Both the position numbers and the translations under genes were made by a program. The notes below the pieces were generated by a model. That model searched no databases. It had not been told where the DNA came from and worked only from the letters and a program-made list of their open reading frames with translations. DNA of 64,000 bases from an uncultured virus (IMG/VR IMGVR_UViG_3300032093_000026) (taxonomy: Duplodnaviria; Heunggongvirae; Uroviricota; Caudoviricetes): IMG/VR virus record IMGVR_UViG_3300032093_000026; one strand, given 5' to 3'. Shown in pieces: positions 8,907-63,934 of this stretch. Position 1 is the stretch's first letter. Each line of letters opens with the position of its first letter.

Positions 8907-8929
8907 TTTAATTAATTTTTAAAAGTTAT

Positions 8930-9007: not shown

Positions 9008-9018
9008 TTTCAAAATTT

Positions 9019-9975: not shown

Positions 9976-9978
9976 ATA

Positions 9979-10614: not shown

Positions 10615-10616
10615 AA

Positions 10617-11653: not shown

Positions 11654-11654
11654 A

Positions 11655-11918: not shown

Positions 11919-11935
11919 ATTACTACAATTTTATA

Positions 11936-12544: not shown

Positions 12545-12545
12545 T

Positions 12546-12860
12546 TTAATTGTTTTTAGTTAAGTATTTTGTTTCATCAAAAAACTCCTCATGTTTAAAA
12601 AATTTATCGTGATAAATCTCAGGTGTATACGTTGTATGTGTAGATTTTACTCCAAAAACTGACTGCTGTAAAAACCTAACTTCTTTTTCAAGCTGTTCAA
12701 TTTTTGTTTTATCTATACTAGATTGAGCTAAAAGAGCTTTAACATCTGATCTTAGTTCAGTAACATCACGCCAAATCATCATAGCTAAAATTGTAACAAG
12801 TGATGGAAATAGGTATAATTTAATACCACTTACCACGGAGTTTTTTGAGGTACTTGTCAT
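12546..12860 (-). CDS. Single-TM coiled-coil protein (holin/spanin-like)
   Basis: LYLFPSLVTILAMMIW followed by a heptad segment; ATG at 12860. Confidence 0.5.
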   Translation of the reverse strand: MTSTSKNSVVSGIKLYLFPSLVTILAMMIWRDVTELRSDVKALLAQSSIDKTKIEQLEKEVRFLQQSVFGVKSTHTTYTPEIYHDKFFKHEEFFDETKYLTKNN

Positions 12861-12899
12861 TTTCAAAAAAATTATACAAATAAAAATAGATACAGATAT

Positions 12900-26765: not shown

Positions 26766-26794
26766 AAAAAAGAGGAGATTTTCTCCTCTTTTTT
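26764..26794. terminator. Bidirectional terminator between replication and cargo blocks
   Basis: AAAAAAGAGGAGA-TTT-TCTCCTCTTTTTT. Confidence 0.85.
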
Positions 26795-47900: not shown

Positions 47901-49283
47901 AGATTTAACATCTTTAAGTTCAGCCATCTTACCTTCAACGCCAAATTTTTCATTAACTCTTTGAATAGCTAACTGAGCATTTTCTTCTACAAAACCTTCC
48001 ATCAAAGTACCTTTACCTAAAGCAGTAAGAAAAATTCCTGGTTTACTATTTAAAAGTTTACCTATACCTGTATTAGATAATTCATATGCTAATTCATCAC
48101 CTAACCTAGTACCTCCCATTAAACCTTTTGAAATAGGTTTAGTAGCAGCTTTACCCCACATGCTATTCAGCAACTTTAATTCCCATAAATTTGTCGCAGA
48201 TAGTATAGCCGCATTTGCCATGAATGTTTCTTTCATGTGACTAGCAGCTATTAACTTTTTTTCTTCTTTTGTATAAGGTAATCCAGTGTTTGGGTTAATT
48301 CTTAAAAAACCTCTTTCATCTGTAGTTAAACCTTTTTCAATATTTTTACCTACTTCAGTGGTTTCAAACATAGATTCACCACCTACAGAAAGAGCCCATT
48401 GTGAAACTCTATCTAAACGATTAGCCCAAATAGATTGTGCCTTTGTTAAATAATTTTGTACAGACGCTGCTCCTTCAATTGCATTATTAGCTGCACCTGC
48501 CCCTAATTTATAACCTGATAAACCTCTTGCTATTTTTTCTCCAACACCTAATCTAGAAAATGCCATACCAGGAGCAAAAGCTGACACCATAAAAGCAACA
48601 CCATCTGTAAAATCATTTGTCCAAAAATTTAAATCATGTGTTGCTCTCCACCAAAAGCCTGCACCTTGTGCTTCAGCTTTTTCATACACAGGAAGCCAAT
48701 CATTTTTTAGTTGTTCATCTAAATGACCAAAAACTTGAGCCATTGCATTTTGAGATGCATTTTGGATGTAATTATCTCCCCAGTTAGTTGGGTCTATCAG
48801 CCCTAAAAGAAAACCTGTATTTTGACCTATTTTAAATCCAGTAGACAAAGGAAGTCTAAGTAAACCTTTACCTAAATTAGCCCATACACTTTCATTTTGA
48901 GCCATCCAATCTTCATTATTTCTATCATATTGAAAGTTAGGACCTATTCTTTTACCTGGCTCAAAACCACTATCATCATATCTACGTACTTCTGATAATG
49001 GTGTTTTAAAAGGTTCTGTACTAATACCAGATCTTGCAAATTGATCTGTGCGTTCTACGTATTGTCTTGCAGCAACAAAAGCAGCACTCATATTAATAGT
49101 GGTACTATCTGTAGTGAGATCAGGAATTTTACCAAACTTACTCTCACTAGTTAATGCTTCAAGATTTAGTATTCTTTTAGAAGAATCATCAAATTTGTCT
49201 AAATTTGATAAATCGTCAAGTGTTAAATCAAGATTTAAATCTTTAACCGATGTATTTGATACATAGTCGTTAAATGCTGACAT
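41955..49283 (-). CDS. Giant cargo protein (2442 aa) with hydrophobic segments, zincin domain and helical repeats
   Basis: Gly-rich hydrophobic N-terminal segments; HEIIH...QEFLAEAYSNPEFQ; DAELAA repeats. Confidence 0.75.
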   Translation of the reverse strand: MSAFNDYVSNTSVKDLNLDLTLDDLSNLDKFDDSSKRILNLEALTSESKFGKIPDLTTDSTTINMSAAFVAARQYVERTDQFARSGISTEPFKTPLSEVRRYDDSGFEPGKRIGPNFQYDRNNEDWMAQNESVWANLGKGLLRLPLSTGFKIGQNTGFLLGLIDPTNWGDNYIQNASQNAMAQVFGHLDEQLKNDWLPVYEKAEAQGAGFWWRATHDLNFWTNDFTDGVAFMVSAFAPGMAFSRLGVGEKIARGLSGYKLGAGAANNAIEGAASVQNYLTKAQSIWANRLDRVSQWALSVGGESMFETTEVGKNIEKGLTTDERGFLRINPNTGLPYTKEEKKLIAASHMKETFMANAAILSATNLWELKLLNSMWGKAATKPISKGLMGGTRLGDELAYELSNTGIGKLLNSKPGIFLTALGKGTLMEGFVEENAQLAIQRVNEKFGVEGKMAELKDVKSLANQYWNQTLNAVTGKDPEASISIGLGGILGGGMSVYSELKQAKRNDEFTKAAVKFYNEAQQNWLKFGNIFETKMVTTKDKDGNEVSEEQIILDEKGKPTINQSKLFNVANNFNNVNSAIEAANTVENKFHRDLLRDSAFAQFVNAHIQLGLENTLLGKLDAVGRTDAGELAKLGFTPDETTPQQIEKYKNLTKQMIAQNKILNDDIIFKKDWRGRMLPEEEARKNKMTELATRLAIYRNLVNETTADNNEFKNEMLNQIAKEDIGLSDDLADQLNDLQLRIDSQKDYIEGMEISDKKPIEKALAKTVLNELQKELDTLKKDNPEALKTIKKGPDGLYQYEKANRNQVQNVILRNKLYSRQQRSSQLQNQIRQLGLEWAKYADTKNGAANFKEYIDNVIVKPFNEIADRAERGKSQRFTDEERKKRREERKGKKYEEGTSWVKKGTNATFLYRMKDDDRIAEDIMEYYDVQDGETVALKPMIQKMAANPYIDPYLRMALARLYDSIKDDAKVKFDRNQTIAPAFYTLGSNTITIDPDLHEGKMSFEGVMLHEIIHLLTSDELAYNSKFTRDIEKLYNYAKKTLEDRGIDTSYYGFTNIQEFLAEAYSNPEFQKELTSVPGLTGKKSLWVEFVDALSDFFKRVFNLELKPSVLDDIFYKVDEYLSDNIYTSAARLLKENGLTEEEIENYSKREIIDMAINEKLITDDLVVMRAKFLEEIEQEKKKEEEEKRRKELESQQQQGQQGQQQQQTETSGIDFTENYIFNGKKYDIAPLGDLILLNALDGTDDNIGFTEEEFLDNLKTGKLKRAKDVEGQEIPNTVEEYLQQQYNKVKASNDAADRETPPYEIWEKTSGKFERQRYERLKGGPKPKTEEYKIDDNVVFEDKEYTVAEITKTQDGRVVYHLKDLEGNPLVASDGVKRFVEASSLKKAEPKPDVEINYFDQIQVNNEFTDDQGNIYKIASVIPGKAVNYIVTNNAGETSFDKALIDDFLGKLENGTYKIRYSEFIEDDPSAVRDFVQNNRFDTTGLQSSRSDNNTANVTYQEGRRQTAPSNSLANTTDIAEFRVTGDVVTQVRTGVNTNYVFDIATGNFPEGSSLTYRVMTKDFPTVTNRITGDVYDAGNIFGPDGKVNPEMYDYAPIGVYATIEGKEKLIGTFHEPQWINHKIFNKYVNIVVPEDQLDMDLPTVVKEEVAKNQKFRKFILDNFNNDPSFEMNGIVEGKSIGILRNTTDPGVIKDRVNPKIADGGTDNRHGMFAIVKNGELQVDAGVVIDKVENTKSFTEEIDNQSGVSVLLLPTPRGTFFPTYVKLPKVSENKAKLIIEAWKAFVGETMNPKLVEGIYKALGMEMSEGKPDIGVLQRYVDQFITRLKKEQLSEIGNGSDVANGLARLNITAQGHLYLQVKTADGEWFNNDGKPIVLSSELPGNVISLMQNLLTTVKFTDPRNPNLVGINNTKKVPFVTIQNNEVKITPMTYNEYIMQNAMTYVEEGIPSKNKDGDWVYFANPVIKMSSNTDAIVVKPKEEEVVVGDTFEKPPVVTPAPTAPVSDIEKRRKEIEDFRTDAKEDIVVSVLGTKGQRWGTVIRVHKKENTNTFKQYKLTDFETKELLEKEIDKIYDAELAALTQPIAPVVSDKKAIVAAGIREQGTQVSVEVIGDSGKEFLLVIDRNSKGRVELFSEKKDWGDGTFTYRPGESEQASQEQKVKLYNKYVPESVRNLITEWQNSFTGSWAAPETEDGKRHRAIEAKLEKELAALEGAKPATASVSNVKANIEERRKAALKKYDDEGGMYDDDYGKQKRRINAQYDAELARELYKELKAGKIITSFSKEEQEILNDSTILTSEIKASVDAELAAAEVKPTVKQTKKSAKTQLRFAKVGDVLYDEKGNKYEVISKKDKYGRSLEYKKNDVEQGVINPKTVGPYDNPFAMEDLYYEKPEVSSEQAAVNPDDIFAQLDRIAIANQMTDEQVEKEKDKCNTKPKSKK

Positions 49284-49320
49284 TAGTTTTGCAATTTATT
49301 AGTATTTTAATTTACAGTTT

Positions 49321-51573
49321 TTATTTTTGTACTGGTGGATTCATTAATACTTGAAGTTCTTTAAAGGTGTAATTTTCACAAAGAAATTTAACAGTGCGAC
49401 CAAAGTCTTCAACTGACTTAAGTGGTTCAAACCCAGGACCACCTGATGTTATCATCTCTCCTTTATTATTTTTTAAATAGTATAAGTTTTCACCAGCTTT
49501 AACACCACTGAATTTTATATTATAACCATCTTTTGTTCTATCAAGGTATAAAAATTCTTCAGGTTGACCTTTATATACTTTAGATCCAATTCTATGTAGC
49601 AGTCTTCTTTGATCATAATCAAATCCATAAAAAGGATCAAACTTCTGTAAAGACTGAGCACCTGCGTTAAGAATTTTTACCTCACCTGTTTTATCATTAT
49701 ATTGATAATTACCTTTACCAACTCTAGCCTCAAGAGAAGCTTTTAATTGTGTTACACTAATTGTTGATTTGTTTGGATCTAATTGAACATTGAATGAAAC
49801 ATCTACACCGTTAGCTGTTGGACTAAAAATAAGCCCTCCTCCAATTTGTGAAGCATCAATACCACTCATAGTTGCAGCAGCACTAACTGCTTCAGCATAT
49901 CTTTTATCTGCTGGGTTCAAACCATACGATTGATATGTTGTCGCAACTTTTGTATAATTTGGATCTTGATATTTACCTAAATATGTATTATATGCAGTAT
50001 TAAGTTGATTATATAGTTGTGTTTCCTGATCAGTTAATTTCATCCCTTTATTAAGTCTTGTTTGTAAAATTGTCAATGCGTCAAATTGTTTACGACCCAT
50101 ATTATTTACAATAAAACTTTGAGCGTTTGTTTTAAAATTTTTCAAATTTTCTACACTTACATTATATAACGCTGATTTTTTTGTAAATTTTAAAACAAGC
50201 TCATCTTGTGGATGTTCTCTTACATATTTAGAAAATGCTTTTTGTGTTAAAACAGTTCCTGCAGGTAGTGATAATTTTATATGATTTTCTAATTCAGTTT
50301 GAGCAGTTGTTACCTCATTTACCATTCGATAAACATCATTTTTAGCACCTTGAAAGTTATTAAGTTCAGGTGTAGATGACCCACCTTTTATAGGTATATA
50401 TGGTAAACTACCTTCATTATTTTTAAGACCCAGTTTATATAATTCATGCTCCCAGTCTTCCTTACGATCTTCTAATTCCCAATTTCTTTTGGTGTACATT
50501 CTACTAGTTTCCTGTGCTTCTCTATAAAACATCATAGCAACTTGGTTAAAATCAACATCTTGTTCAACATCAAAATGAGCATAACCTTTAGCTAATCTTT
50601 GTATTTCTTCATTATAAAAAATACCAAAAGATAAATTTTCTGCATTTCTTCTTACAAACGTCATATCACCAGTTCCAGAAAAATTATTATCCATCTGGGT
50701 TTTCTGGTTAGCATAAGCATCTCTTTCTTTAATAAGCTGATCTTTTTTTGTAGGATCTTTTTCATTACGAATATCTACATCAAGTTCAAGTATTTTCATC
50801 TGTAAAGGTGCTTGAACAGGAGCTAATGCATCTGAATAAGCTTTACCTAATACATCTAAGTTATTACCATATTTTACAGCACCATCAATTCTCATTTGTG
50901 TTTTAGCCTGATCAGAAAGAACAGCATCTAAATAATTTGAGATTTCTCCTGGCAAATAACTTTTATCATCCACCTTTTCTACATAAAAACCATTTATTTT
51001 AACTGTTTTTGTATGAGACGGTTTAAATTCTTTCATACGTTCTGCCACCTCTTTCTTGTAATCATAATAAGGTGTATAGGATCTCTTCATACCATAATAT
51101 TCTTTCCAAGACTCTGGACCATCATTAGCAAAATAATTCTTTTGTTGATTTATATAATCAATATTATTTTGATGAAAAAATTTACCTCCCTCCTGTAGAC
51201 GGTAACTATTACCAATAGAGACCTGTCTGTTCCAATGCTCAGTTAATGACTGATCACCAACAACATCAAAGTTGTTGTAAAATGGAGCAAATACATTTTT
51301 AGCAGCATTAACATTTTGAACTTGAGACAAATCCATTTTAGACAAGTTCTTAAGATTATCTTTTGCTTGCTTTAAAAATTGCTCTTTTACTTTTGCATTA
51401 TATGGGTTAGTTGTTTCCCTATTAACAAAATTGTAAGTGGAGTTTATTTGTGCAAAGCCCTGGTCATACAATGCTTTTCTTCTCTGAAGCATTTTGTCCA
51501 TGAACGAAAAGTCAGGCGTAAATAACGCTGGTTCAGGAAAGACGTCAGTGACATTTGGTAAATAAGTAGCCAT
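49321..51573 (-). CDS. Virion cargo/structural protein (750 aa)
   Basis: Long ORF in the cargo operon, starting MATYLP...FTPDFS. Confidence 0.65.
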   Translation of the reverse strand: MATYLPNVTDVFPEPALFTPDFSFMDKMLQRRKALYDQGFAQINSTYNFVNRETTNPYNAKVKEQFLKQAKDNLKNLSKMDLSQVQNVNAAKNVFAPFYNNFDVVGDQSLTEHWNRQVSIGNSYRLQEGGKFFHQNNIDYINQQKNYFANDGPESWKEYYGMKRSYTPYYDYKKEVAERMKEFKPSHTKTVKINGFYVEKVDDKSYLPGEISNYLDAVLSDQAKTQMRIDGAVKYGNNLDVLGKAYSDALAPVQAPLQMKILELDVDIRNEKDPTKKDQLIKERDAYANQKTQMDNNFSGTGDMTFVRRNAENLSFGIFYNEEIQRLAKGYAHFDVEQDVDFNQVAMMFYREAQETSRMYTKRNWELEDRKEDWEHELYKLGLKNNEGSLPYIPIKGGSSTPELNNFQGAKNDVYRMVNEVTTAQTELENHIKLSLPAGTVLTQKAFSKYVREHPQDELVLKFTKKSALYNVSVENLKNFKTNAQSFIVNNMGRKQFDALTILQTRLNKGMKLTDQETQLYNQLNTAYNTYLGKYQDPNYTKVATTYQSYGLNPADKRYAEAVSAAATMSGIDASQIGGGLIFSPTANGVDVSFNVQLDPNKSTISVTQLKASLEARVGKGNYQYNDKTGEVKILNAGAQSLQKFDPFYGFDYDQRRLLHRIGSKVYKGQPEEFLYLDRTKDGYNIKFSGVKAGENLYYLKNNKGEMITSGGPGFEPLKSVEDFGRTVKFLCENYTFKELQVLMNPPVQK

Positions 51574-51603: not shown

Positions 51604-51633
51604 AAAGTTTAAAATTAAACTTTTAAAGTTTAA
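51604..51633. repeat. Triple alternating inverted repeat
   Basis: AAAGTTTAA (51604), TTAAACTTT (51615), AAAGTTTAA (51625). Confidence 0.7.
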
Positions 51634-54600
51634 CCCATTAGACCTTGGTAATCTGATAGTATTTGTCTCCTTCTTGAATCTTTATCTTTTTTATCAGAAT
51701 TATTAATCATATTCCAAGCTTCTTCTTCAGCTTTTTTATCAGAAAGACCTCTTTCCATTAAGTCTCCTTTTAATTTAGAAAAACCTTCTAAAGTATAACT
51801 ACCTGAACTCGCACCAAAATCATCCCAATCTTGACCAGCATACTCATTGTAGTAGGATCTTCCTGTTAAAGGATCTACAGGATACATTTGGTTTACATTA
51901 TTTAGTAAGCCAAGATACATTCTATTTTTCCAAGCTTGTCCAAACGCTTTTGCATTTGTATTTAAATAAGCACGTCTTGCATTATCGTAGTTTTGATTTA
52001 ACAAGACATTCTTATCCCAAAGCTCTTGTGATCTTCCTATATTAGCTGCTGTATTTCTTTCTCTTCTTTGAGCTTCATTTTGAGCAAATTCTTTTGCAAT
52101 AGCAACATTTTTTGAATCTATTTCTGCAATATCACTAACTACACCTTCTGCTTGCTGAGCTTGCAAGTTAGCTAAATTTGCGCCAACAGCTGAACTTGGA
52201 GAATATGTATTTAATATTTCCCACATCTTATTCATTTGACTTTGTCTTTGATGGGCTCTTGCTTTCCAATCTTCTAAAACAAGATCAGCAGGTTCAAATG
52301 GTAATTGCTGAGACCATGGGAAATATTTTCTTGGTGGTACAGCAGCAGCTGCAGCCATTGTTACTAAATCAGGTGTCATATACTGAAATGGCATTTGAAT
52401 ATTTTTGCCATCAAATGTACCTGCTCCTTTATAACAAGCTTTCTGTGCTTCAGCATAAGATGAATATACAGTTAGACCTGTATGTGTTGCTGCATTATAA
52501 ACAGCAGGTCCTTGATCAGTACATACATATTGTTTTGCTTGAGTGTTTGTAGTGATAGCAGGAGGTTGATATTTAAATTGATCAAGATGTTCAAGACCAA
52601 TTTTCTTATCATCTTTCATTTCTTTTCTATAATCACTTGCTTCAAATGTTTTAGCAAAAGCAGGATAGAATACATTATTAAAAAAGTCAGGATCTGTATA
52701 TAGCTTTTTAACATCTTTTAATTGTTCATCTGTATATTTAGTATGATCAATTAAAAGATTCTTAAAGAATATTCTTCTTTTTTGAATATCACTCATACCC
52801 TTTAATGTATTTGGATCAGGATAGAGTGCTCTTAACACTTTATTCTCAAACATTTGTGGAGTTACACCACCAAAAAATCCAACTTTCTCATCTTGACCTT
52901 TTGCATCTTTTTGAACCCATGTAAGACCTTCTGTAGAGTTTTGCGTAATTTGATAACCTTTGATTGGTGTACCTTTATCATCTGTTTCATCATCATGTTG
53001 TAAACCAAAATAAGTAATTAACGCTGCTAATTCATTTGCTTCATCTTCTGTAAGATTTGATACATAATATTTACCACCTTCAGCTTTTGCTTTTTTAGCA
53101 AGAAGTTCTTGCATTTTTGCATATTTAGGATCTTTTAAGCTTGCTTTTTTATCAGGTGTTTTTGATTGATCATAGTAACCAGGAGCTTGTGTTGTAGTTG
53201 GATCAACAACAGTTAGACCACCTCTTATATACATACCCAATCTAGAAACAGATCCACCTCTACGCATTGGAGGTTCTTGACCCATTTGTTGTTCTTGAGA
53301 AGGTGCCATAGGTGCTTGTTGATTATCTTCTTGATTAACAACTTCTTTTGAAGGTCCTTCCATTTCTGCAAGTTCAGGCATAATGTTTTTAACAACATCA
53401 GGTATACCTTGTGGGAAACCTTTCATTTGTTCTTGTATCAAAGCAAGCTGAGCAAGTTTCTTTTGATATGTTTTAACCATTAATTGAGCTGTAGATTTTT
53501 TAAGCTCATCTGCATTTTTATCTTCAATTACTGCTTTATATTTATTTATATCATACTTTTTAGCAATCTCAGCTGGTGTGTATCCTTTTTTACTAGGAGG
53601 CATTCCAAACATCTTAAGAATCTTTTCATCTTTGATTCTTAATTTTTCTGTATCAGAAAATATAAAACTACCTTCTGGAACATTTAATGGTGTACCACCT
53701 TCAGTGTGTCTTTTACCACCAATAAGCATATGTTCCAAAGCACCATCACCATCTACATCACCAAAAATTGTTTCATCTTTTTCAGCTTCAATATTGGCTT
53801 TTGATCTAGGTACAGGTTTTAAAGTTTTAGACAATGTCTCGGATTTCTCAGGTGGCATGTCTGTATAAATTCTTTTTTGACCAAGATTCAATCCATAACC
53901 TAGCTGCCCACTGTACGTCATAGGTTGACCACCTGTAGCAAAAAACCAACCTTGTTTTTTATTACCAGGCTGTTGGGTCATACCATATGGATTATATTTT
54001 TTTCTATAATAATCCTCAAACATACCATACCCAGGTTTATTTATATTTCTCATTAAATCATATGCATTTAATAAATTTGTTCTAAGTCCTTCGTTAGGAT
54101 CTCTTGGTCTAAATTGTTCTAAATTTTTATTATACTCTTCTAATTGAGAAATATCATCTACGGAATTAATACCACCAAAATTCATTTGGTTTAAACCATC
54201 ATCAATAATTCTAATTTTTATTTTTTTCATATTACTAGTTATAGGTGTACCACCATGTTTAACTACATTACTTGGTTGAAAAATAGGATTTGTATACATA
54301 CCTTTACTTTTAAAACCTCGTTTGTCTGGTTTATATTCTCCTGTTAATCCAAAAACATCTCCTTTATCTGGCTCTTTAGCAGTTAAAGAATTATCAAGCA
54401 ATTTAGTTTCGGCCCACCATTTGTTAAATTTTTTTTGTTGCTTTCTATCTGTAAAATAATCTATAATAGGTTGTGCAATAAGTGCAGTACCTAATATATT
54501 TTTAGATGTTCTTTCCATCCATGTACCTGGCTTATCTTTTTTTTGCTTTTTTTGTTTAGGTTGTATATCTTGACATTCTCCTGTAACTAGATTTTTTTCT

Positions 54601-55007
54601 TTACCATCAGGGCAACCACCTATTGCTTGTTTAAAATCAGAGCCTGGTTTAGGAATTGTAAAGTTTCCATCAGCTTGTAAATTACCATCTACAAGTTTAG
54701 TTTTTGGAAGAGTTATTGTTTTATCTGGATCTGGAACACATTTACCTAATATAAAGTCATATTTATATGTAGGATCATCACATTGTGTTTGAGCAAAAAA
54801 TCCATTTTTATTTATACCAAATGGATTTTTGTTCTCTCCAGTTATTGTAAAAGGATCTTTTTTATTATATAATGAATAATCATTCTCTGGTAAACTAATT
54901 TTATCAGGAATACATTTATCACCAACAGGTATATAACCTGGATCACAATTAGGAGGGGTACCCCCTATAACCATTTTAGGCAAACCTGTTATTCTAATTC
55001 TAGGCAT
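51630..55007 (-). CDS. Virion cargo protein (1125 aa) with xxGG motifs
   Basis: NIEAEKDE...GKRHTEGGTPL..PEGSFIFSD domain, Cys-pair repeats and several [FMY]xxGG motifs. Confidence 0.7.
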   Translation of the reverse strand: MPRIRITGLPKMVIGGTPPNCDPGYIPVGDKCIPDKISLPENDYSLYNKKDPFTITGENKNPFGINKNGFFAQTQCDDPTYKYDFILGKCVPDPDKTITLPKTKLVDGNLQADGNFTIPKPGSDFKQAIGGCPDGKEKNLVTGECQDIQPKQKKQKKDKPGTWMERTSKNILGTALIAQPIIDYFTDRKQQKKFNKWWAETKLLDNSLTAKEPDKGDVFGLTGEYKPDKRGFKSKGMYTNPIFQPSNVVKHGGTPITSNMKKIKIRIIDDGLNQMNFGGINSVDDISQLEEYNKNLEQFRPRDPNEGLRTNLLNAYDLMRNINKPGYGMFEDYYRKKYNPYGMTQQPGNKKQGWFFATGGQPMTYSGQLGYGLNLGQKRIYTDMPPEKSETLSKTLKPVPRSKANIEAEKDETIFGDVDGDGALEHMLIGGKRHTEGGTPLNVPEGSFIFSDTEKLRIKDEKILKMFGMPPSKKGYTPAEIAKKYDINKYKAVIEDKNADELKKSTAQLMVKTYQKKLAQLALIQEQMKGFPQGIPDVVKNIMPELAEMEGPSKEVVNQEDNQQAPMAPSQEQQMGQEPPMRRGGSVSRLGMYIRGGLTVVDPTTTQAPGYYDQSKTPDKKASLKDPKYAKMQELLAKKAKAEGGKYYVSNLTEDEANELAALITYFGLQHDDETDDKGTPIKGYQITQNSTEGLTWVQKDAKGQDEKVGFFGGVTPQMFENKVLRALYPDPNTLKGMSDIQKRRIFFKNLLIDHTKYTDEQLKDVKKLYTDPDFFNNVFYPAFAKTFEASDYRKEMKDDKKIGLEHLDQFKYQPPAITTNTQAKQYVCTDQGPAVYNAATHTGLTVYSSYAEAQKACYKGAGTFDGKNIQMPFQYMTPDLVTMAAAAAVPPRKYFPWSQQLPFEPADLVLEDWKARAHQRQSQMNKMWEILNTYSPSSAVGANLANLQAQQAEGVVSDIAEIDSKNVAIAKEFAQNEAQRRERNTAANIGRSQELWDKNVLLNQNYDNARRAYLNTNAKAFGQAWKNRMYLGLLNNVNQMYPVDPLTGRSYYNEYAGQDWDDFGASSGSYTLEGFSKLKGDLMERGLSDKKAEEEAWNMINNSDKKDKDSRRRQILSDYQGLMG

Positions 55008-55017
55008 AATGTATAAT

Positions 55018-58000
55018 TTAAATTATTTCAAATTTAATTCCTTTTCTTCTAAGTTCTTTTAATTCTTCTTCTGTAACTTCCATTTCTTGACCAACCATTC
55101 CACCTTGAGCATACATGCCCCCACCATACATACCCATTGGCATTTGTTGAGGTGGAGCTTGTTGTTGAGGTTGTGCAGGTCCAGCACCTTGTTGTGATGC
55201 TTGTATCTGTTGCATAACCATTTCAACAGCTTGTTGTGCAAGTTCTTCAGGAACACCTTGTTGAACTAAGTTTTGCATAATTTGTTCAGGAGGCATTTGT
55301 TGTTGCATCATTTGTATAACCATTTGAACAACTTGTTGCATTTGTTCTTCAGATATTTGTGAAGCTTGTTCACCTTGTTGTGGTGGCATTCCTTGTTCAG
55401 GTGCTGCTGCACCTTGTTGTTGCATCATCATAGCTTCTTCAGGTGTCATACCACCTTCAGCATATACAAATCTACTTAATGGATTTACTGGTTGAAAAGG
55501 ATTATAAAATCCACCATCTTCAAAACCTTGATTACCATTCCATGTACCTGTATATGCACCACCATCTTCACTCATAGTCATTTCTGAATTTTCATAACAA
55601 TTACCCCCCCAACAGTCACCTTGACGCTTTATACCTCTTTGTATTTGTCTATCCATTTTTCTTTGCATGCGATTAAGTTTTCTATTACTTGGAAAGGGAT
55701 CATCACTTCTTCTTTCTTTTTTAGGTATTGGTTTAACATATTGATCAGGATACCAAGTATGTTCTCTTCCAAAAATATTATAAGTGTAAGGAGTTTGACC
55801 ATAAGGGTTTTGATTACTATATGCAACATCTTCAGGTATATTATGTCTTTTTCTAAACCATACTTCAGGATGTGCTAATGTAGCACCAACAGATCCTGCT
55901 AATGCTCTAAAAGGACTAACGGTTCCATCAGATCTTACACCTTTATTTACATACCCAAATAAATCATTATAAAAAGGTGTCATATGTTCTGTATAACCTT
56001 GACTAACTAAATCAGCTGCAGCTTTTTCTCTACCTTTTCTAACATTATATCCTGGAGGACATTTACAATCATATTCTGGGCAAAGACAATTATCTACCTG
56101 ACCTGCTGTTTCATAAACATCTCCACCATAAGCATAATTTACAGAATAATCAGAACCAAGTCCATATTTAGGTAAGTTAGCACCATAAGATATATCACCA
56201 TATTGTGGTATAAATGGTCCAGCTTCACCACCTTCTTCTTTTCTACGACCTTTTTTACCTTTATTTTTACCAGCTTGCTGTCTTTTTTGATAGTTAGCTG
56301 CATTCTCTCTTCTTTTCTGATCTTTCTTTTCTTGCTCTATTTGTTCTTTAGTTTTATTTTCAGTAGCTTGTTTTTCATTTTCTGCTCTTACTCTTTCTTC
56401 TTCTATTCTTTGTGCCTCTTGTTGATTATTAAAAACTTCAAACTGACCTGTAGCACCTTTTTGTTTTGCTTCAGCTATTAATTCAGCTACTGTTTTTTGA
56501 TTTTGAGCAACAGGTCCTTTACTTTTTTCTTTCGGTGTTGTTTCTGTAGATCCAGTTGTCTCAGTACCTGTTGTCTCTGCACCTGCTGTTTCTGCACCAC
56601 CTGTTTGTGTACTTGTTCCTGCGTCTGAAGTAAATAATGAAAGTCTATCTTTTCTGTCTTTAATAGCTCTTTCAACTATTTTTTGATTATTTTTGTTTAA
56701 GTTAGCACGTCTTTCATTTTCTGGAGTATTGTCCCATTTATCCCATATTTCTTTACGTTCTTTCATTTCCTCTTCAGTGAGAGGTATTTCATACTGATCA
56801 TTGTCAATTTCAAATTTTAGAGCATTAGTATCCCAGTTTGTAGTAAAATAATAGTTTTTGCCTGCATCACTCTCTAAAAAAGACAATTGTTTTTCTAATG
56901 TTTCTTTGTCTTTAGGTAATCTTAAGTTTTCCTGTTCTGCAGATGTAGAAGATGTTGGTGTTTCTGTACTTGTTGAAGAAGTAGGTGTTCCTTCGTTAAT
57001 AGGTACAATTTCAAAGTCTGATTCTGATTCATTAGTTGATGAAGATGATGCAGGACGTCTTCTTGTTTTATTCATTTCTTGCCATCTTTCTTTAGTAGGT
57101 ATATCCTTTAACATTTCTTTTGCTTCTTCAAGTGTAGCACCATTTTCCAAAAGACGATTGATATCATATTTACCACGTGTATAACCTCTAGCAAGCACTT
57201 CATTCATATATGCTGTCTGACTTGCTTTAAAATTTTTTAATTCAGCTTCAGATAATTTAGATCTATCTATTTCTCCAACATTACCCCATCTTCTTTGTAT
57301 AGGTACTTTAGACTTATTGTATCCATATCCTATTGCTTTGTTTCCTAGATATGCACCAAGTAGATATCCAGGACCTGTAACATACCATGGATAATCTGTT
57401 TTGTTTTGATCATTTAATATTATTTGTTCACCCTGATTAATTTGATTATCTGTAGGTATACCTATACTATCTTTTGTACCTTGAGTAGGCATTGGTATGT
57501 CTAAAGTATCTGAAAAAGGATTAACAATTACAGCATTACCCTGTTTAATTACTTTATTTGTCTCTTCATTACCAGCACCTGCAGTTGTATCAGGTTCAGC
57601 AATAACTTGATCCATTAACTGCTCCATACTCATTGTAGTAGTGTTTGTCAAAACAGAATTTAAATAATTATCATAACTCTGTTTAAATGCATCATAACTA
57701 GGATAGTTTTCTACATTAGGCAATGTTTCTAAACTTCCAGTACCAAACATTGGTACTTGCATACCAAGATCAGCTCTTGGCACTCTACCACCCCAAGCCA
57801 TCATACCTTGTTGCATTCCTGGCTGTTGCATACCTTGTTGTTGCATACCAGCTGGCTTCTTCATTTGCATTTGTCTCTGAAGCTGATTGTTAAATGCTGT
57901 AACAATACCAGGTGCTTGGTCATCAGGTATACCCATACCAATTAACTCTTCAACAATTTGAACATCAGTGAAACCTTGTTGTTTCATCTGCATCATAAAC

Positions 58001-58098
58001 TGAAGAATTTGTTGTTGAGATGTTTCAGAATCTTGAGATGGTTGGTCCATTTCCATTCCATACATTGCTTTACGTAAATTGTAGTTGTTGTAATACAT
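55018..58098 (-). CDS. Low-complexity virion protein (1026 aa) with Q/M-rich ends and xxGG motifs
   Basis: Q/M-rich N- and C-terminal domains; YAEGG, FEDGG, YAQGG and similar motifs. Confidence 0.7.
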   Translation of the reverse strand: MYYNNYNLRKAMYGMEMDQPSQDSETSQQQILQFMMQMKQQGFTDVQIVEELIGMGIPDDQAPGIVTAFNNQLQRQMQMKKPAGMQQQGMQQPGMQQGMMAWGGRVPRADLGMQVPMFGTGSLETLPNVENYPSYDAFKQSYDNYLNSVLTNTTTMSMEQLMDQVIAEPDTTAGAGNEETNKVIKQGNAVIVNPFSDTLDIPMPTQGTKDSIGIPTDNQINQGEQIILNDQNKTDYPWYVTGPGYLLGAYLGNKAIGYGYNKSKVPIQRRWGNVGEIDRSKLSEAELKNFKASQTAYMNEVLARGYTRGKYDINRLLENGATLEEAKEMLKDIPTKERWQEMNKTRRRPASSSSTNESESDFEIVPINEGTPTSSTSTETPTSSTSAEQENLRLPKDKETLEKQLSFLESDAGKNYYFTTNWDTNALKFEIDNDQYEIPLTEEEMKERKEIWDKWDNTPENERRANLNKNNQKIVERAIKDRKDRLSLFTSDAGTSTQTGGAETAGAETTGTETTGSTETTPKEKSKGPVAQNQKTVAELIAEAKQKGATGQFEVFNNQQEAQRIEEERVRAENEKQATENKTKEQIEQEKKDQKRRENAANYQKRQQAGKNKGKKGRRKEEGGEAGPFIPQYGDISYGANLPKYGLGSDYSVNYAYGGDVYETAGQVDNCLCPEYDCKCPPGYNVRKGREKAAADLVSQGYTEHMTPFYNDLFGYVNKGVRSDGTVSPFRALAGSVGATLAHPEVWFRKRHNIPEDVAYSNQNPYGQTPYTYNIFGREHTWYPDQYVKPIPKKERRSDDPFPSNRKLNRMQRKMDRQIQRGIKRQGDCWGGNCYENSEMTMSEDGGAYTGTWNGNQGFEDGGFYNPFQPVNPLSRFVYAEGGMTPEEAMMMQQQGAAAPEQGMPPQQGEQASQISEEQMQQVVQMVIQMMQQQMPPEQIMQNLVQQGVPEELAQQAVEMVMQQIQASQQGAGPAQPQQQAPPQQMPMGMYGGGMYAQGGMVGQEMEVTEEELKELRRKGIKFEII

Positions 58099-58108
58099 AT
58101 AATTTTAT

Positions 58109-61100
58109 TTATTGTTTCTTTGAACTATTTAAAATTTGTTCTAAAATACTTTGATATTCTGGATTTGTTTTTAAAACAAAAGCATTATTTTTAAAATCGT
58201 ATAATTGTCTATTTTTTTTGTTTAAGTTAAAATCACTTTTTAAATAATCATCAACTAATTTTCCATCAGAAGTTCTTGTATCAATAGTAAATATTTTACC
58301 ATTAAGATTAAGATTATAACTAGTATCTCTACCCTGCGCATACGCAGTTGGAAATTCTATTTTCTTTGGAACTACAACAGGTTTATATTCTGGAGTTGAT
58401 TTTGTTTCTGTACTTGTTGTATTGGCTCCTGTACCTGTAGTACTTATTGTACTTGTATTAGTTGGCGTAACTGTAGTTGGTTTAGTAGATGGTGATCTAT
58501 GTATACTTGGATCATAAAATTTTTCACTTATAGGATCCCACATAAATTCAAAAGGAGCTGTTCCAGTTGCTTCCTGCCAACCATAATCACCTATTCTAAA
58601 AGCAGGTGCACCTGATCTACCAAAACCTGTCATTGCTGTAGCTGGTCCCCAATAAGCGTTATGTACAAATCTAACAGGTGTACCTGCGAATGTCATACCT
58701 TTACCCAAGAGATTTTTTCCACTATAATTTCCTAGAATATCTCTACTAGCATTTATAATTGATGTTCCAGGTGCTTTAGCAAATTGTCTAATACCAGCTG
58801 TTGAACCAACACCTCCCACTGGTGTACTCAAAAATCCTTGAAACCCTACGTTAGCTGCATTTAAAAAAACATTACCAGCTCCATATAAACTAGGATCTTT
58901 ATAAAAATTTTTTCCAGAAGTTACAAGATCTCTGCCTGCTTGTTCTACAACTGGTAAATTTTGAAATCCTAAAAGACCTGGATTTTGTTTTCTATCACTT
59001 CTCTCATACATCATCGCCTCCTGTGAATTTATATCTTCACCATAATTATTATAAACAGGATTAGGTTCTCCAACTTTATTTGCAAGATATCTAGTTCCTT
59101 TTGCAACATCCATTAGTGTACCTGTTGCAATATCACCTACAAAATTTGTTACAGGTGAATACCAGGCATTTGATTTACCTGCTCCAGTAGCATTTCTATA
59201 ATTATTTCCAAACTCACTTGTATTAAAGAAATTTTTTACAAAGTCATTACTATTATATAGCTTTTGTAAATTTGGTGCATATTGTTTCCAATCTTGTTCT
59301 GATGTATAACCTGCACTTCTTTGTGTAATACCTTGAACAGCATTTCTTAATCTGTCATCTGTCCAGTCACTATATTGACCTGGTTTAATTAACCAACCAT
59401 CACCATAACCAGTCGCACGCAATCCGTTTTTATGAATATATTGCAAAGTTTCATTTAACTTTTGTTCTACTGGATCTCCTGTTTCTGGATTAGTTTGACT
59501 ATACATTCCATATCCACGACTTGGATCGCTTTCAGGACGTTTTTTCTCAAGATCTACATTTTTATAATATGGACTATTTTTATAAAACTCTTCAGCACCC
59601 TGTGGAATAACTACACTTGGACCAACAACTAACGGCAATTTATTTTTATCTGCAAAATTACCAGCCATTCTTTTAGAATCTGTAGTGAAAGCACCTTTTT
59701 TATTTGTTTGAAAAACATTTACATCTAATTCATCATAGTATACACAGTTTCCATCTACATTAATTCTTAATCTACCGTTTTCATCTGGAGGACATTGAAA
59801 CTCTTTTTCTTTTCTATTATACTTAGGTAATTCATCTTTACCACCATACATATATACTTCATCAAAATATTTCCCAAGTTCTTCTTCTGTTGGTTGAACA
59901 TATTCAATTTCAACACCTTGTGGCGTATACTTAGGTTTACCTGTAGGAGCCATTGGATCTTCAAAATTCCATTCAAGATTACTTGGTGTTTGATAAAACG
60001 AAGGCCACGGTTTATTCATGCGCTGCTTTATCCACAATGCTTTTCTTTCTTCATAAGGAAGGTCATCAGCAGAAATAACAATTTCTTGTAATTGTTTAAT
60101 GTCTTTATAATCTGGAGGTAATGTAGTTGTTGAAGTTAATTCAAAGCCATTAAATGCTTTTGGTAAAAACTTTTTTAACTGCCCACCTTGTTTCTTTTGT
60201 TCTATTGCTCCTGCTGTTTTCATTCCCAATCCTAATGTTGTTGCACCAAGCCCTATTTGATTTAAAGATTTTATTAATGCAGGCATATTAAAATCTTTTA
60301 CATTAACTCCAAAAAGATAACTATGACCTTCTTTTATCATATCTTGTAATCCTTTTTCAATTTCTGGAATATCTTTTTCTGTATAAACTCTATCTCCTTT
60401 AATATCTTTTAATTTATCAATTCTTAGTTCATTTTGTACAGCAAATACTTCTTCTTCTGGCATTCCAAAATTATTCTTTTTTATCATTGGGCTCCAAGCT
60501 TCACCAGCAATTTCTTTTTCAGCATCTGTAGCTTCAAGTCTAATAGATCTACTGTGGGTTGTTTCATGCAGAGCATCTGTGTATGCAGATGTTGAAGGAA
60601 TATTACTAGTATATGGTGCATTTTTATTTACTAGTACAACATCATTTAAATCTCCATAACCTCTTGCTCCATATTGACCAGGTTGTTCTCCTAAATACTG
60701 TTCTATTGAAAGACTTGGATTATGTTTTAATCTATAAGCTTCATATAATTTAAGTGCTTCTGGATCATCAATAAATCTTGCTTGTTGATTAGTTACTGAA
60801 AAATCTGGAAGTTTTACAGCTCCTACTTGTCTAGGTCTAAACGCTTCAAGTTTTGCTCTATTTGCTGGAGACTGAGAAAAAATTGTAGCATCTTGATTTG
60901 CTCTAGCAATATCTGCATCTAGTAAAGCATTTGATTCTATTTTAATAGGTTTAAATGTTGAAGGATTAAACTTATAAGCATTTTTTACAGCCCCTTGTGT
61001 AAGATATTCACCTACTCTTGGAGCAGCTTTTGCAATACCTTTAATTCCTGCACTAATAGCGGCTTCTAATAATGTACCTACCTCAATAGCTTTTAAAATT

Positions 61101-63934
61101 TTATCAGCTTCTGCTCTTTTCTTATCTATGTATTCTTGACTGTGTCCAGCACCCTCCATAAACCCTAAATCCTTTCTACGTTTGTTTACTTGTTCTGTGA
61201 ACTCTCTAGCTTTTTGTTTTTCTTTTTCTGTTCTTGTATCTGGACCAATTGTTGTTCTTGTTCTTGCTGCTTGTTCCTTTTTTTGTTTTAATCTAGCAGC
61301 ACCAACTATTTCAGCCATTATTCGCTCATTACTCTTAATACCTGTTTGTTGAGCAATATCACCCTGACGCATGGCTTTTTCTTGAGCAGCAATAGACATT
61401 TTTAGATCAGCAAGAGTGCCACATTGACCATTAGGTAGCTGAATTTGTGGTTCACCATTTGGACCAGGAGGACATTTGACTTCACCTCTTGTTTGAAACT
61501 TAGGTAGTGACCCACCTTTATCATATATATTACCACCAAAAGCTTTATTTTGTTTTTCATTAATATATTGACCAACTTGTGCAGGTGTTATTTCATAATC
61601 AGATTGTATATCATAATCACTTGGCGCATATTCAGTTCTTAGTCTTCCACCAGCTGACGTATATTTGTCGTATTGATCGCTTCTTATTAATTGATTTGTT
61701 CCAGGTATACGCTTATAATAAATTCTTCCTTCTATTTCAAATGGTTTATTAAATTTATCAGCTATATCACCAACTACAACATTTTTATCCATAGCTTTTA
61801 AAATATTTTCACCAACATGCTTATTATTTATTTTAAAATCTTTAATCTTTTGGTAATTTTTTGGAGACATGTGCTTAAATGCAAATTCATTTGCATTTAA
61901 TTTATAAGTATCTAAATCCCAAATATCATTATACTGAAAATACTGACCTTTATCATCTTCTCCTTTTGTTACAGTGTGCTTACCCATGATCAAGTCTCCA
62001 AAAGGCTTAATAAAACTTTCTTCACCACCAACATGTTTTTCTTTTTCATCTTCAGGTTCAGGTGCTCCATATATTTTTACAAGTTCATCAAAATCTTCTT
62101 GTGTTATGATTATAGGAAATGCTTCTTTATAATCATTTATTTCAAAAGCACCTTTTTTATATCTAGAAGGACTAAAAGAATTACGTGTTTGAGGTAATCC
62201 TAAATAAAGTCTAAAAGCATCATGTTCTGCAGTAGCAACTCTATCATCATAATCATTAAAAATTATTTTACCATTTTCTTTACTATCTTTTCCAGTTAAA
62301 GCAAGCGATGCAACTCGCACTGGATCAATAGCATACCCAGCAGTTGTATTTAATTTTCCTAAGTTCAATCTTGTTTCATTAGGATTATAAACACGTTGAT
62401 CGCTAGTTATACCATATTGTTGCATTTCTTGAGCATCAGTTCCACCCCATCCTGTTGTGTATCTTTTATTACCCCACATAAATTCTTTTTCACCTGCTCT
62501 CTTAGCTCTTTCATAAGCTCCTTCAAACGTATATTTTGAATAGTCATCAACACCCCAGTTAAAAGGATTTACATAACTAAGCCAATTTCTATCTTGTCGT
62601 TTTGGTCCTGTAACAACTACATCTTCTTCATTTTTTACAAAATCATCACCCATCTTTTCATAGTTCCCTTGCTGAAGTTGACTTTCTGTAGGAACATAGT
62701 ATTGACTTGGACTAATTGTTGTTGTTTGTGTTGTTTGAAAACCAGTATATCCACCTGGTGCAAATTTTTGTTTTTGACCTCCTTTTTCTTTAAAGAAGTC
62801 AAATATATTAGATGCTTGAGGATTATTTTGTTGTTCTTGTAATTTTTCAATTTCTTTTTTAGATAAAACAAAATTCATCCTAAACATGTCGTTCTTAGTA
62901 GGATCACCTTCAGGATTAGCTACTTCAGTTGATCTAACTTTATTTCTTAAATTTTGATATAAATTATCACCTTTAAAGTTTTTTTCACCTGTATTCCAAT
63001 CGTATACATCTGTATAATAAACATCACCTGTTTGTGGATCTGTCCAGTATCTTCCTCTACCAATCGTACTTGCTAATGTAAAACCTGGATTAGACAAACT
63101 TTTCCAAACTAATTCACCTTTACCGATTTTTCCTTTATTAAACCAATTTGTAAAATCATCTGCTGAACCATATCCTAATCCACCATAATCTGTATATTCT
63201 GTACCTGAATTATCTAAACCAGTTCTTTTTTTAGAGTTTTGAATAACATTCCAAAGAATTAATTTTTGCTCATCTGTCAAAGATTCATTGTTCATTCTAG
63301 CATCACCAAATACTTGTTTAGCTAACATTTGAGAAACATTCGCTGGTACAGGCATCAAATTTCTAAATGTATTTGCGCCACTTGCATCTACGTTTGTATA
63401 AGTATTATCTTTAAAACTTACTCTTTTATTTTTTGATTTAGTTTGTTTTTTATTTAGTCCTGCAGAATTTTGAATTTGTGTATTTGTAAGTACAACAGGT
63501 TTTTGAATATTTGGTCTTGTACTTTCTGCAACAATTCTACTTTCTGGAAACTTCTTTCTTTTTTCTTCTTCTCTTTTTCGCATTTCCATTAAAATAGAAG
63601 AAGCTGTTTGAGGTTTCATTGTGGTTGTAAATGTTGTTTTAAAACCACCTGGTTCAAAATTAGTTAATACATCTTTCTTGTAATTTCTCTTACCATATAT
63701 ACCAGCAAAGGATTCGCCACCTTGTTTAGCAGGCATTAAAAAACCACCATTAAAAAATCTAAGTTTAGGATCTACACGCTGTTCAGGTTCAGAACTTTCA
63801 AAAATTCTTTTACGAAAAGCATATCCATTATCACCACCTAATTCTAAATTTGGCAATAAACTTCTTTCAGCTGTTTTTTGTTTTGTTAGCTTCTGATGAT
63901 AATAGTTAGATAATATTGAATCATTTTTTTTCAT
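58109..63934 (-). CDS. Large multi-module virion protein (1941 aa) with xxGG motifs and zincin-like domain
   Basis: About 10 xxGG motifs; LHETTH at 60554-60568; FEGAYERAKRAGEKEFMWGNKRYTT motif. Confidence 0.7.
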   Translation of the reverse strand: MKKNDSILSNYYHQKLTKQKTAERSLLPNLELGGDNGYAFRKRIFESSEPEQRVDPKLRFFNGGFLMPAKQGGESFAGIYGKRNYKKDVLTNFEPGGFKTTFTTTMKPQTASSILMEMRKREEEKRKKFPESRIVAESTRPNIQKPVVLTNTQIQNSAGLNKKQTKSKNKRVSFKDNTYTNVDASGANTFRNLMPVPANVSQMLAKQVFGDARMNNESLTDEQKLILWNVIQNSKKRTGLDNSGTEYTDYGGLGYGSADDFTNWFNKGKIGKGELVWKSLSNPGFTLASTIGRGRYWTDPQTGDVYYTDVYDWNTGEKNFKGDNLYQNLRNKVRSTEVANPEGDPTKNDMFRMNFVLSKKEIEKLQEQQNNPQASNIFDFFKEKGGQKQKFAPGGYTGFQTTQTTTISPSQYYVPTESQLQQGNYEKMGDDFVKNEEDVVVTGPKRQDRNWLSYVNPFNWGVDDYSKYTFEGAYERAKRAGEKEFMWGNKRYTTGWGGTDAQEMQQYGITSDQRVYNPNETRLNLGKLNTTAGYAIDPVRVASLALTGKDSKENGKIIFNDYDDRVATAEHDAFRLYLGLPQTRNSFSPSRYKKGAFEINDYKEAFPIIITQEDFDELVKIYGAPEPEDEKEKHVGGEESFIKPFGDLIMGKHTVTKGEDDKGQYFQYNDIWDLDTYKLNANEFAFKHMSPKNYQKIKDFKINNKHVGENILKAMDKNVVVGDIADKFNKPFEIEGRIYYKRIPGTNQLIRSDQYDKYTSAGGRLRTEYAPSDYDIQSDYEITPAQVGQYINEKQNKAFGGNIYDKGGSLPKFQTRGEVKCPPGPNGEPQIQLPNGQCGTLADLKMSIAAQEKAMRQGDIAQQTGIKSNERIMAEIVGAARLKQKKEQAARTRTTIGPDTRTEKEKQKAREFTEQVNKRRKDLGFMEGAGHSQEYIDKKRAEADKILKAIEVGTLLEAAISAGIKGIAKAAPRVGEYLTQGAVKNAYKFNPSTFKPIKIESNALLDADIARANQDATIFSQSPANRAKLEAFRPRQVGAVKLPDFSVTNQQARFIDDPEALKLYEAYRLKHNPSLSIEQYLGEQPGQYGARGYGDLNDVVLVNKNAPYTSNIPSTSAYTDALHETTHSRSIRLEATDAEKEIAGEAWSPMIKKNNFGMPEEEVFAVQNELRIDKLKDIKGDRVYTEKDIPEIEKGLQDMIKEGHSYLFGVNVKDFNMPALIKSLNQIGLGATTLGLGMKTAGAIEQKKQGGQLKKFLPKAFNGFELTSTTTLPPDYKDIKQLQEIVISADDLPYEERKALWIKQRMNKPWPSFYQTPSNLEWNFEDPMAPTGKPKYTPQGVEIEYVQPTEEELGKYFDEVYMYGGKDELPKYNRKEKEFQCPPDENGRLRINVDGNCVYYDELDVNVFQTNKKGAFTTDSKRMAGNFADKNKLPLVVGPSVVIPQGAEEFYKNSPYYKNVDLEKKRPESDPSRGYGMYSQTNPETGDPVEQKLNETLQYIHKNGLRATGYGDGWLIKPGQYSDWTDDRLRNAVQGITQRSAGYTSEQDWKQYAPNLQKLYNSNDFVKNFFNTSEFGNNYRNATGAGKSNAWYSPVTNFVGDIATGTLMDVAKGTRYLANKVGEPNPVYNNYGEDINSQEAMMYERSDRKQNPGLLGFQNLPVVEQAGRDLVTSGKNFYKDPSLYGAGNVFLNAANVGFQGFLSTPVGGVGSTAGIRQFAKAPGTSIINASRDILGNYSGKNLLGKGMTFAGTPVRFVHNAYWGPATAMTGFGRSGAPAFRIGDYGWQEATGTAPFEFMWDPISEKFYDPSIHRSPSTKPTTVTPTNTSTISTTGTGANTTSTETKSTPEYKPVVVPKKIEFPTAYAQGRDTSYNLNLNGKIFTIDTRTSDGKLVDDYLKSDFNLNKKNRQLYDFKNNAFVLKTNPEYQSILEQILNSSKKQ

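Follow-up and report, generated by a model that had tools for sequence, protein, structure and literature searches.

A 64,000-nucleotide stretch of DNA from an uncultured virus of the Caudoviricetes (IMG/VR record IMGVR_UViG_3300032093_000026), referred to here in its entirety as the window, carries on its plus strand a replication module with a DnaB-like helicase, a primase, a family B polymerase, a uracil-DNA glycosylase, a Sak4-like ATPase, a PD-(D/E)XK nuclease and a deoxynucleoside monophosphate kinase. Its minus strand holds seven very large open reading frames (ORFs) in one run, here named A to G. The subject of this analysis is a short motif, [F/Y/W/M]xxGG, that is concentrated in A (58109–63934; 1941 amino acids (aa)), B (55018–58098; 1026 aa, rich in Q, M and G) and C (51630–55007; 1125 aa). 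These ORFs and the other window features located below lie on the minus strand.

The genes upstream of A can be read from a near-identical virus record, G001 (75% of sampled words shared, 100% identity over the stretch tested; 74% complete), which runs past the window end. Moving away from A in the upstream direction, it encodes a 1647-aa muzzle-like protein, genes for tail and fibres, three small basic proteins, and then the major capsid protein, portal and large terminase. The muzzle-like protein matches virion-structural PHROGs, ends in ...SPR and directly precedes A. In crAss001, the muzzle gp44 is followed by the cargo proteins gp45 and gp46 and then by giant RNA-polymerase-associated proteins (excerpts of PMC10172136). 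Because the gene order here follows that of crAss001 (muzzle, cargo, giant proteins), A, B and C occupy the cargo position of a crAss-like phage. By this gene order and the analogy with crAss001 they are probably virion proteins carried inside the particle. Sequence searches with A, B and C matched no PHROG, no Pfam family above threshold and no PDB chain, and B and C found no tblastn match among 50,697 phage records. B has a sub-threshold match to DUF7626.

An earlier note on this DNA had listed 24 pentapeptides and four degenerate forms in A, B and C as a candidate processing or packaging code, and all of them are present at the places it gave. Its motif, [F/Y/M/K]xxGG, proved too loose, and the enrichment is real for [F/Y/W/M]xxGG. 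Because only this form is enriched, the listed sites divide into 16 true motifs and 8 other GG pairs. The list lacked a seventeenth site, MLIGG, which lies within the folded domain of C. GG alone occurs 37 times in A, B and C. Whole-protein shuffles give 29.6 (37 is reached by 421 of 5000) and shuffles within blocks of 15–40 aa about 34–35; GG frequency is explained by glycine content. The full motif occurs 17 times in the 4092 aa of A, B and C against 3.7 expected, a count reached by 0 of 5000 shuffles, and against 4.8–5.7 in the 15–40-aa block shuffles, where 0 of 3000 reach it. Since local block shuffles give about 5 sites, not 17, it is residue order rather than composition that matters. 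Put differently, F, Y, W or M stands at position −3 in 17 of the 37 GG sites, against a background of 0.126 (binomial P = 7e-7).

The four remaining large proteins, D (49321–51573; 750 aa), E (41955–49283; 2442 aa), F (30279–41948; 3889 aa, a polyvalent-type giant protein) and G (26793–30275; 1160 aa), behave differently. Across their 8241 aa there is one motif against 3.3 expected, and only 1 of 24 GG sites has F, Y, W or M at −3 (Fisher P = 4e-4); F has no site in 3889 aa.

The motif is shared by related phages. A tblastn-confirmed scan found a homologue of C at 40–53% identity in 16 viral contigs. Neither A nor B matched the proteins of those loci by BLAST (E < 1e-4), and no homologue of B was detected in any of the 16, yet the motif is frequent in proteins at the equivalent position, with 10 copies in one of 400 aa. 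Because these motif-rich syntenic proteins have no BLAST match to A or B, the motif has been kept while the remainder diverged. We counted motifs family-wide in ORFs of at least 300 aa from 14 contigs, after dropping the near-duplicate loci L003 and L012. Of the proteins encoded upstream of the D homologue, 41 (counting the C homologue) have no muzzle-like end; they contain 163 motifs where 30.6 are expected, a count that 0 of 1000 shuffles reach. The numbers are 10 against 9.2 in 10 muzzle-like proteins and 12 against 19.4 in 29 downstream proteins (55 of 1000 shuffles as low). The upstream class has 413 GG sites, 159 of them with M, F or Y at −3; Q, K and A are enriched at −2, Y, D, Q and E at −1, and P at −5, and none of this residue pattern is seen at 183 downstream GG sites. 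The motif therefore often takes the form [F/Y/M]-[Q/K/A]-x-G-G, in many cases with L-P-K before it, and information content outside the GG is about 0.3–0.5 bit per position. When eight moderately diverged upstream proteins were aligned, the columns of the motif stayed in register, with flanks rich in insertions and deletions. SLT, lysozyme, peptidoglycan-binding and DUF5872 domains were recognized in 16 relatives' proteins from the A/B/C position, among which no peptidase was found. Literature searches, which were not exhaustive, returned no description of the motif or of cargo processing in crAss-like phages.

Within A, the motif lies between modules. A search with residues 1–1200 against 1.84 billion representatives returned 397 matching proteins, and these define modules at residues ~176–375, 451–740, 856–996 and 1001–1250 that recur at varied positions in proteins of 92–3390 aa. 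A thus consists of at least four shuffled modules and a C-terminal part, and such a polypeptide, built of many unrelated modules that move among phage proteins, is typical of polyvalent proteins. The motif sites of A fall in troughs of homologue coverage or at module edges, and the non-motif GG pairs TDYGG, TGWGG and KHVGG fall inside modules. Measured over 156 of the proteins (164 high-scoring segment pairs), aligned modules contain 0.61 motifs per 1000 aa (20 in 32,773 aa), and the stretches within 45 aa outside the module ends contain 5.05 per 1000 aa (71 in 14,049 aa). In AlphaFold models, the predicted local distance difference test score (pLDDT) is below 35 in the segments around four sites: FATGG, MRRGG and YIRGG in C, and KKQGG in A. 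This boundary density and the low pLDDT at the sites confirm the earlier note's placement of the motifs, in pairs, in linkers between unrelated modules. The second module of A (61625–62644, residues 431–770) has colicin M-like (lipid II-degrading) neighbours in the ESM Atlas with a score of 0.78, which is a lead only. Look-ups there for modules 1 and 2 gave scores of 0.77–0.78, within the range reached by shuffled proteins, and were set aside.

By sequence comparison, the motif is part of three related cassettes: an N-terminal leader, an internal junction cassette and a C-terminal tail. The leader has the consensus MPRIRITG-LPK-x-x-x-G(G), or more broadly M-x-(K/R)-I-(K/R)-I-x-G-x-LPK-x-x-x-G(G). 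C begins with it (54903–55007, residues 1–35), reading MPRIRITGLPKMVIGG and then a C-x-P-G-Y...C knuckle. In the C family, which numbers 1519 database proteins, the leader (a strand and an LPKA-like element) starts 67 of 114 anchored members and 10 of 11 aligned N termini. Relatives in which the gene is split start with M-x-(K/R)-(R/K)-V-K-I-K-x-L-P-x-K-K-D-G-G. The same short leader thus stands on proteins that are otherwise unrelated, namely C, its family and a 137-aa basic protein with a related N terminus. The tail has the consensus GG...L-(S/T)-x-E-E-I-x-x-I-I-x-x-G-G-x-V-E-(F/Y)-L-D. B ends in ...YAQGGMVGQEMEVTEEELKELRRKGIKFEII, and a comparable tail is found, in 10 of 10 aligned relatives, at the end of the protein that is encoded immediately upstream of the C homologue; some upstream proteins end in a leader-like strand (GGSVRKVKIKSLPRKNQ). 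Several C-family proteins also end at or next to G or GG (YQGLMG, SQGG, YGGGQ, YDQG and SQNG; window 51633–51650 and loci L006, L009, L011 and L013).

The junction cassette runs xxGG, spacer, LPK-aromatic-x-x-G(G), and then a threonine-rich run or a small C-P-x-G...C knuckle. What the earlier note had seen as pairs of motifs are the two halves of this cassette of about 25 aa, as in GGQKQKFAPGGYTGFQTTQTTT and GGQLKKFLPKAFNGFELTSTTT. A has an N-terminal cluster at 63605–63859 (residues 26–110), with LLPNLELGG, FFNGG, AKQGG and FEPGG before a threonine-rich run, where homologue coverage is 1–2. Between modules 1 and 2 it reads KEKGG-QKQK-FAPGG-YTGFQTTQTTT (62699–62812, residues 375–412). After module 2 come KAFGG, YDKGG and LPKFQTRG, followed by a C-P-P-G...C knuckle (61415–61567, residues 790–840), and further on EQKKQGG-QLKKF-LPKAFNG-FELTSTTT (60110–60205, residues 1244–1275) and YMYGG-KDE-LPKYNRKE with a C-P-P...C knuckle (59735–59872, residues 1355–1400). 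In B, KEEGG, LPKYGLG and YAYGG precede a Cys-rich knuckle, CPEYDCKCPPG (56029–56256, residues 615–690); SEDGG, FEDGG and YAEGG cluster at 55450–55572 (residues 843–883), and the C-terminal tail reads MYGGGMYAQGG-MVGQEMEV-TEEELKELRRKGIKFEII (55021–55146, residues 985–1026). B has six [F/Y/W/M]xxGG sites in all.

The N-terminal extension of C is variable; a conserved domain comes next, and the C-terminal part is helical. The folded domain (53370–53831, residues 393–546; ANIEAE ... IGGKRH..GGTPL ... SFIFSD) is modelled with pLDDT 75–91. FATGG(Q) precedes it (53928–53942, residues 356–360; pLDDT < 35), and a motif pair, MRRGG ... MYIRGG, follows in a linker predicted to be disordered (53217–53267, residues 581–597; pLDDT ~25). 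Of 114 C homologues, 113 have a site of the form x-x-(T/Y/F)-G-G-Q at a distance of 25–55 aa before the domain anchor. A fold search with the 789-residue model of C returned nothing at E <= 0.001 in Foldseek, and a wide structural search returned only long-helix look-alikes (Z up to 7.9); because the matches are such look-alikes, the search is uninformative on the conserved domain.

The motif also occurs beyond the large proteins. The three small basic proteins beside the major capsid protein gene of G001 have KKYEDGG near one N terminus, and LKRGG-TVGKSRKK, KLKKGG-IVKTKKKK, VKLRTGG and KMKMGG near their C termini.

These observations bear on a passive explanation, in which the motif has no specific partner and is a preferred flexible, protease-resistant linker (a Gly-Gly hinge with a bulky residue nearby) that spread by module shuffling. 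The sites do lie in low-pLDDT linkers, modules and linkers are shuffled among hundreds of proteins, and the information outside the GG is modest. Such a linker would nevertheless leave unaccounted for the difference between 17 sites and the 5 given by shuffles that preserve local composition, the fixed position of the site upstream of the C domain (113 of 114), the longer conserved cassettes around the sites (LPK, the K-I-R-I strand and the tail) and the recurrence of the motif in small basic proteins that are unrelated and encoded next to the capsid gene. We regard this explanation as quite unlikely.

The leader has a second copy inside C. At 54168–54275 (residues 245–280), VKHGG is followed by MKKIKIRIIDDGLNQMNFGG, the repeat lying at residues 260–279, and the C homologue of the split-gene relatives begins with the leader element that recurs here. 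The internal strand is found 30–75 aa upstream of the domain anchor in 68 of 114 C homologues, with a Met within 6 aa before it in 66 of the 68. The internal copies could thus be relics or signals of separate translation units, the conserved Met marking internal starts that were formerly or are still used, with only the terminal copies functioning. Fused and split gene arrangements do coexist among relatives. The motif sites without a leader and the eightfold enrichment at module ends across 156 diverse proteins would, however, be left unexplained, and as an account of the motif we find it very unlikely. Met 260 itself (54228–54230), with its counterparts in homologues P0028–P0063, precedes a K-I-R-I strand and may be an internal start that gives a shorter isoform.

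Small Cys knuckles, C-(P/D)-x-G-(Y/F)...C or C-P-P-G...C, follow leaders and junction cassettes in C (54903–54956, 54729–54785 and 54567–54620; residues 18–35, 75–93 and 130–147), in A (residues 818–840 and 1380–1400) and in B (residues 672–690), and many C-family homologues likewise have one after the leader (GGTPPNCDPGY and NGPCQSGYIK are examples). B contains Q/M-rich low-complexity stretches, including residues 34–54 (57937–57999), and its residues ~900–985 form repeated short helices, (S/T)-D/E-x-Q-I-x-E-L-I-x-M-G-x-P, that resemble the helix of the C-terminal tail.

One of the closest known counterparts is gp45 (cargo protein C1) of the Bacteroides phage crAss001. Like A, B and C, it is encoded after the muzzle gene and before the giant proteins. 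According to excerpts of Bayfield et al. 2023 (PMC10172136), segments 214–245 (in the tail barrel) and 425–552 (on the portal) were resolved by cryogenic electron microscopy (cryo-EM), peptides were detected from residues 275–300 and 307–320, and the authors modelled the protein as one chain threading the portal, in which it is stored extended. gp45 begins MAKKKIKRRGKMPPNIFDTGGQ, a K-rich, strand-like and leader-like N terminus that ends F-x-T-G-G-Q. Its GG sites include FSAYGG (209), FAEGG (263), KAFGG (332), NAFGG (427) and FAYGG (562), and the aromatic-GG sites flank both resolved segments. NAFGG (residues 424–428) lies partly inside a continuously modelled segment, and because AFGG, at 425–428, is within the continuous model, this site is uncut in the particle. 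Virions of crAss001 gave bands at 150, 270 and >300 kDa (excerpts of PMC6235969); with bands of these sizes, the giant cargo proteins were not chopped small. The two phages differ in that crAss001 has one such protein with 3 strict sites (gp47 has 4) and the window has three with 17, and the motif is not described in the excerpts of PMC10172136. A regular expression for the leader plus TGGQ matched only the gp45 N terminus in the 77 kb of crAss001 (0.000 expected), with a pattern that was written after seeing gp45 and is not independent of it. Comparison of C with gp45 gave no phmmer or PDB-chain profile match, an hhalign probability of 0.2 and a BLASTP E of 2.3. Fold searches for a counterpart of gp45 residues 425–552 used the 789-residue model of C and were dominated by its long helix.

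A different role for the motif is suggested by a module of A itself. Residues ~1000–1245 (60200–60937) form a candidate metallopeptidase that is predicted to be zincin-like: 12 of 12 aligned sequences share, without variation, HETTH, S-R-S and a downstream Glu-rich helix, EEAFAVQNELR, and the module occurs in 12 other giant proteins. Its model has a mean pLDDT of 70 and a predicted template-modelling score of 0.70. The best structural match is PPEP-2 (Z 6.7, root mean square deviation 4.0, 141 residues aligned), below the caution mark of Z 8, and further matches are nearly all zinc peptidases, among them PPEP-3 (Z 6.0), PepO, an M36 protease, Zmp1 and thermolysin. No Foldseek match was found at E <= 0.001 and no Pfam family was matched. 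The cassette at residues 1244–1275 immediately follows this module, and its K-x-G-G is invariant in 12 of 12 module homologues (pLDDT ~33).

The motif might accordingly be a protease site, at which the leader is removed as a capsid-targeting propeptide or the modules are cut at cassettes, in the head or after ejection, by the zincin-like module of A or by another phage or host enzyme. Consistent with this are the leaders of about 16 aa that end in G or GG on the C family and on a small basic protein beside the capsid gene, the several C-family proteins that end at or next to G or GG, and the candidate module, with its invariant HExxH, S-R-S and EEAFAVQNE, its zinc-peptidase matches and the K-x-G-G at its edge. 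There is also precedent among polyvalent proteins, for which some zincin domains have been proposed to act in processing, and P1 DdrB is cut before packaging (excerpts of Iyer et al. 2017, PMC5512222). The same excerpts record that N4 virion RNA polymerase, which has such a peptidase domain, is packaged unprocessed. In our data, single-sequence tblastn (E <= 0.01) found the module of A in G001 and in 0 of 5 records of motif-bearing relatives, three of which are at least 96% complete, and because none of the five matched, the module is not a general partner of the motif. Searches for Peptidase_C48, C39 and S78 matched 0 of 5 related or near-identical records with positive controls (the C39 control in 7 genomes). 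The AFGG of gp45 is uncut in the cryo-EM model, the large cargo proteins of crAss001 run at about full size, and the structural match of the candidate falls short of the caution mark. A protease site is, in our judgement, somewhat unlikely. The search for a protease that the earlier note had called for thus gave no C48, C39 or S78 match and a zincin-like candidate inside A. As to its inference, a packaging or junction tag fits, because the code at module junctions and termini is real and family-wide; the cutting of A, B and C into many small proteins gained no direct support.

We put it at only a little below an even chance that the motif sites stay uncut and act in ejected cargo proteins as junction, hinge or docking signals. 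In appearance the motif is closer to an uncut joint or docking tag than to a proven protease site. The observations behind this reading are the enrichment, the conservation, the position at boundaries, the predicted disorder and the motif shared with the small basic proteins. In such a scheme, A, B and C would be the cargo or ejection proteins of a crAss-like podovirus, encoded between a muzzle-like tail gene and the giant proteins. Each would be a string of independently shuffled modules on disordered linkers that carry one conserved short linear motif, with the motif sites serving as hinge-and-anchor points that mark module ends. The chain might be stored extended and extruded module by module through the portal and tail, and the cassettes could dock the proteins to a shared partner during loading, such as the portal, the tail barrel, the capsid interior or a neighbouring cargo protein. 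Both the lack of cleavage and the docking partner are inferred rather than observed. For one candidate contact, between the C-terminal tail of B and the N-terminal leader of C, the predicted complex scored 0.14 against a mark of 0.32, which speaks neither for nor against binding.

Several points weigh against this hinge-and-docking reading. A leader of about 16 aa that ends in GG would look like a cleaved capsid-targeting propeptide as well, and the conserved zincin-like module of A has an invariant K-x-G-G at its C-terminal edge. Protease family searches are insensitive to novel proteases, and those for Peptidase_S77 and C5 (0 of 5 records) had no positive control genome and are uninformative. 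The evidence from gp45 is one site in a distant phage, with the aromatic residue at −1 rather than −3, and C and D have no significant similarity to gp45 and gp46 by hhalign or BLASTP. The location of A, B and C inside the particle is itself deduced from gene order and analogy.

Several known systems resemble parts of this arrangement. The internal proteins of phage T4 carry a capsid targeting sequence that is cut by the gp21 prohead protease at sites that end in Glu. The likeness is that one short leader is shared at the N termini of proteins without other relationship, which travel in the head and are injected. Here, however, the leader has a G or GG ending and is also present in internal and C-terminal copies, and no S78 prohead protease was matched (0 of 5). 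The adenovirus protease and pS273R of African swine fever virus mature proteins at GG-X, with a consensus of M, I or L at P4 before G-G. The glycine pair, the small basic core proteins and the large precursors inside a capsid are similar, whereas the hydrophobic M, F or Y stands here at P5 (−3; 159 of 413 sites), P4 (−2) is enriched in Q, K and A, no clan CE protease was found (C48, 0 of 5, with a working control), and the virion is that of a tailed phage with a bacterial host. Double-glycine leader peptides, which are cut by C39 peptidases, differ in that no C39 partner was found in the 5 records. Polyvalent proteins are giant proteins with shuffled effector modules that are packaged and injected (excerpts of PMC5512222). 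The neighbour F resembles them, with a PIF1/AAA_30 helicase at residues 3017–3230 and, near its N terminus, a match to the ART-PolyVal ADP-ribosyltransferase (E 3.7e-5, below the cut-off). The zincin-like module of A, however, matches no Pfam family, and the motif is absent from F. In PMC5512222 no linker motif was found; the term 'linker' occurs there 0 times.

A broader proposal, which we consider unlikely, is that leader, internal cassettes and tail form a Crassvirales cargo 'junction code' that directs proteins to the interior of the particle and arranges them head to tail in their order of ejection, and that in some lineages a virion-borne zincin cuts at the cassettes after delivery and so sets free, inside the host, modules that degrade the cell wall and other effectors. 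If this were true, the code would be a loading-and-processing signal system with a role akin to that of the T4 capsid targeting sequence, and it would operate in the phage order that is most abundant in the human gut, together with its environmental relatives. The crAss001 structure leaves open how several megadaltons of protein are loaded and pass a narrow channel in order, and a conserved peptide at termini and module boundaries offers a concrete handle on cargo loading. The motif could also help to recognize cargo proteins in uncultured crAss-like genomes in which they are too divergent for homology searches, and the zincin-like module of A is a candidate virion-borne peptidase.

Beyond the cargo genes, the muzzle-like ORFs of the related loci (L019 1255–6195, which corresponds to G001 45251–50194, and L001–L016) share a conserved C-terminal KKFR(H/M)Y...SPR tail, and the gene that follows starts on an overlapping ATGA. 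crAss001 gp44 has KKFRIWR near its end, comparable to the KKFR-type tail of the relatives' muzzle-like proteins. Elsewhere in the window, a lysis-type cassette (8539–12866) encodes a 138-aa M15/VanY-like peptidase (10617–11033), small membrane proteins, a collagen-repeat protein (11936–12544) and a lipoprotein (9019–9975) with a signal peptide, TSP3 repeats and a HEAGH zinc-peptidase motif. At 8539–8664, within a listed ORF of 80 aa, a short basic reading frame, MAKGKLTDSRKITFGKRKGGKAAKSRG..., contains K-R-K-G-G and resembles the small basic proteins of G001.

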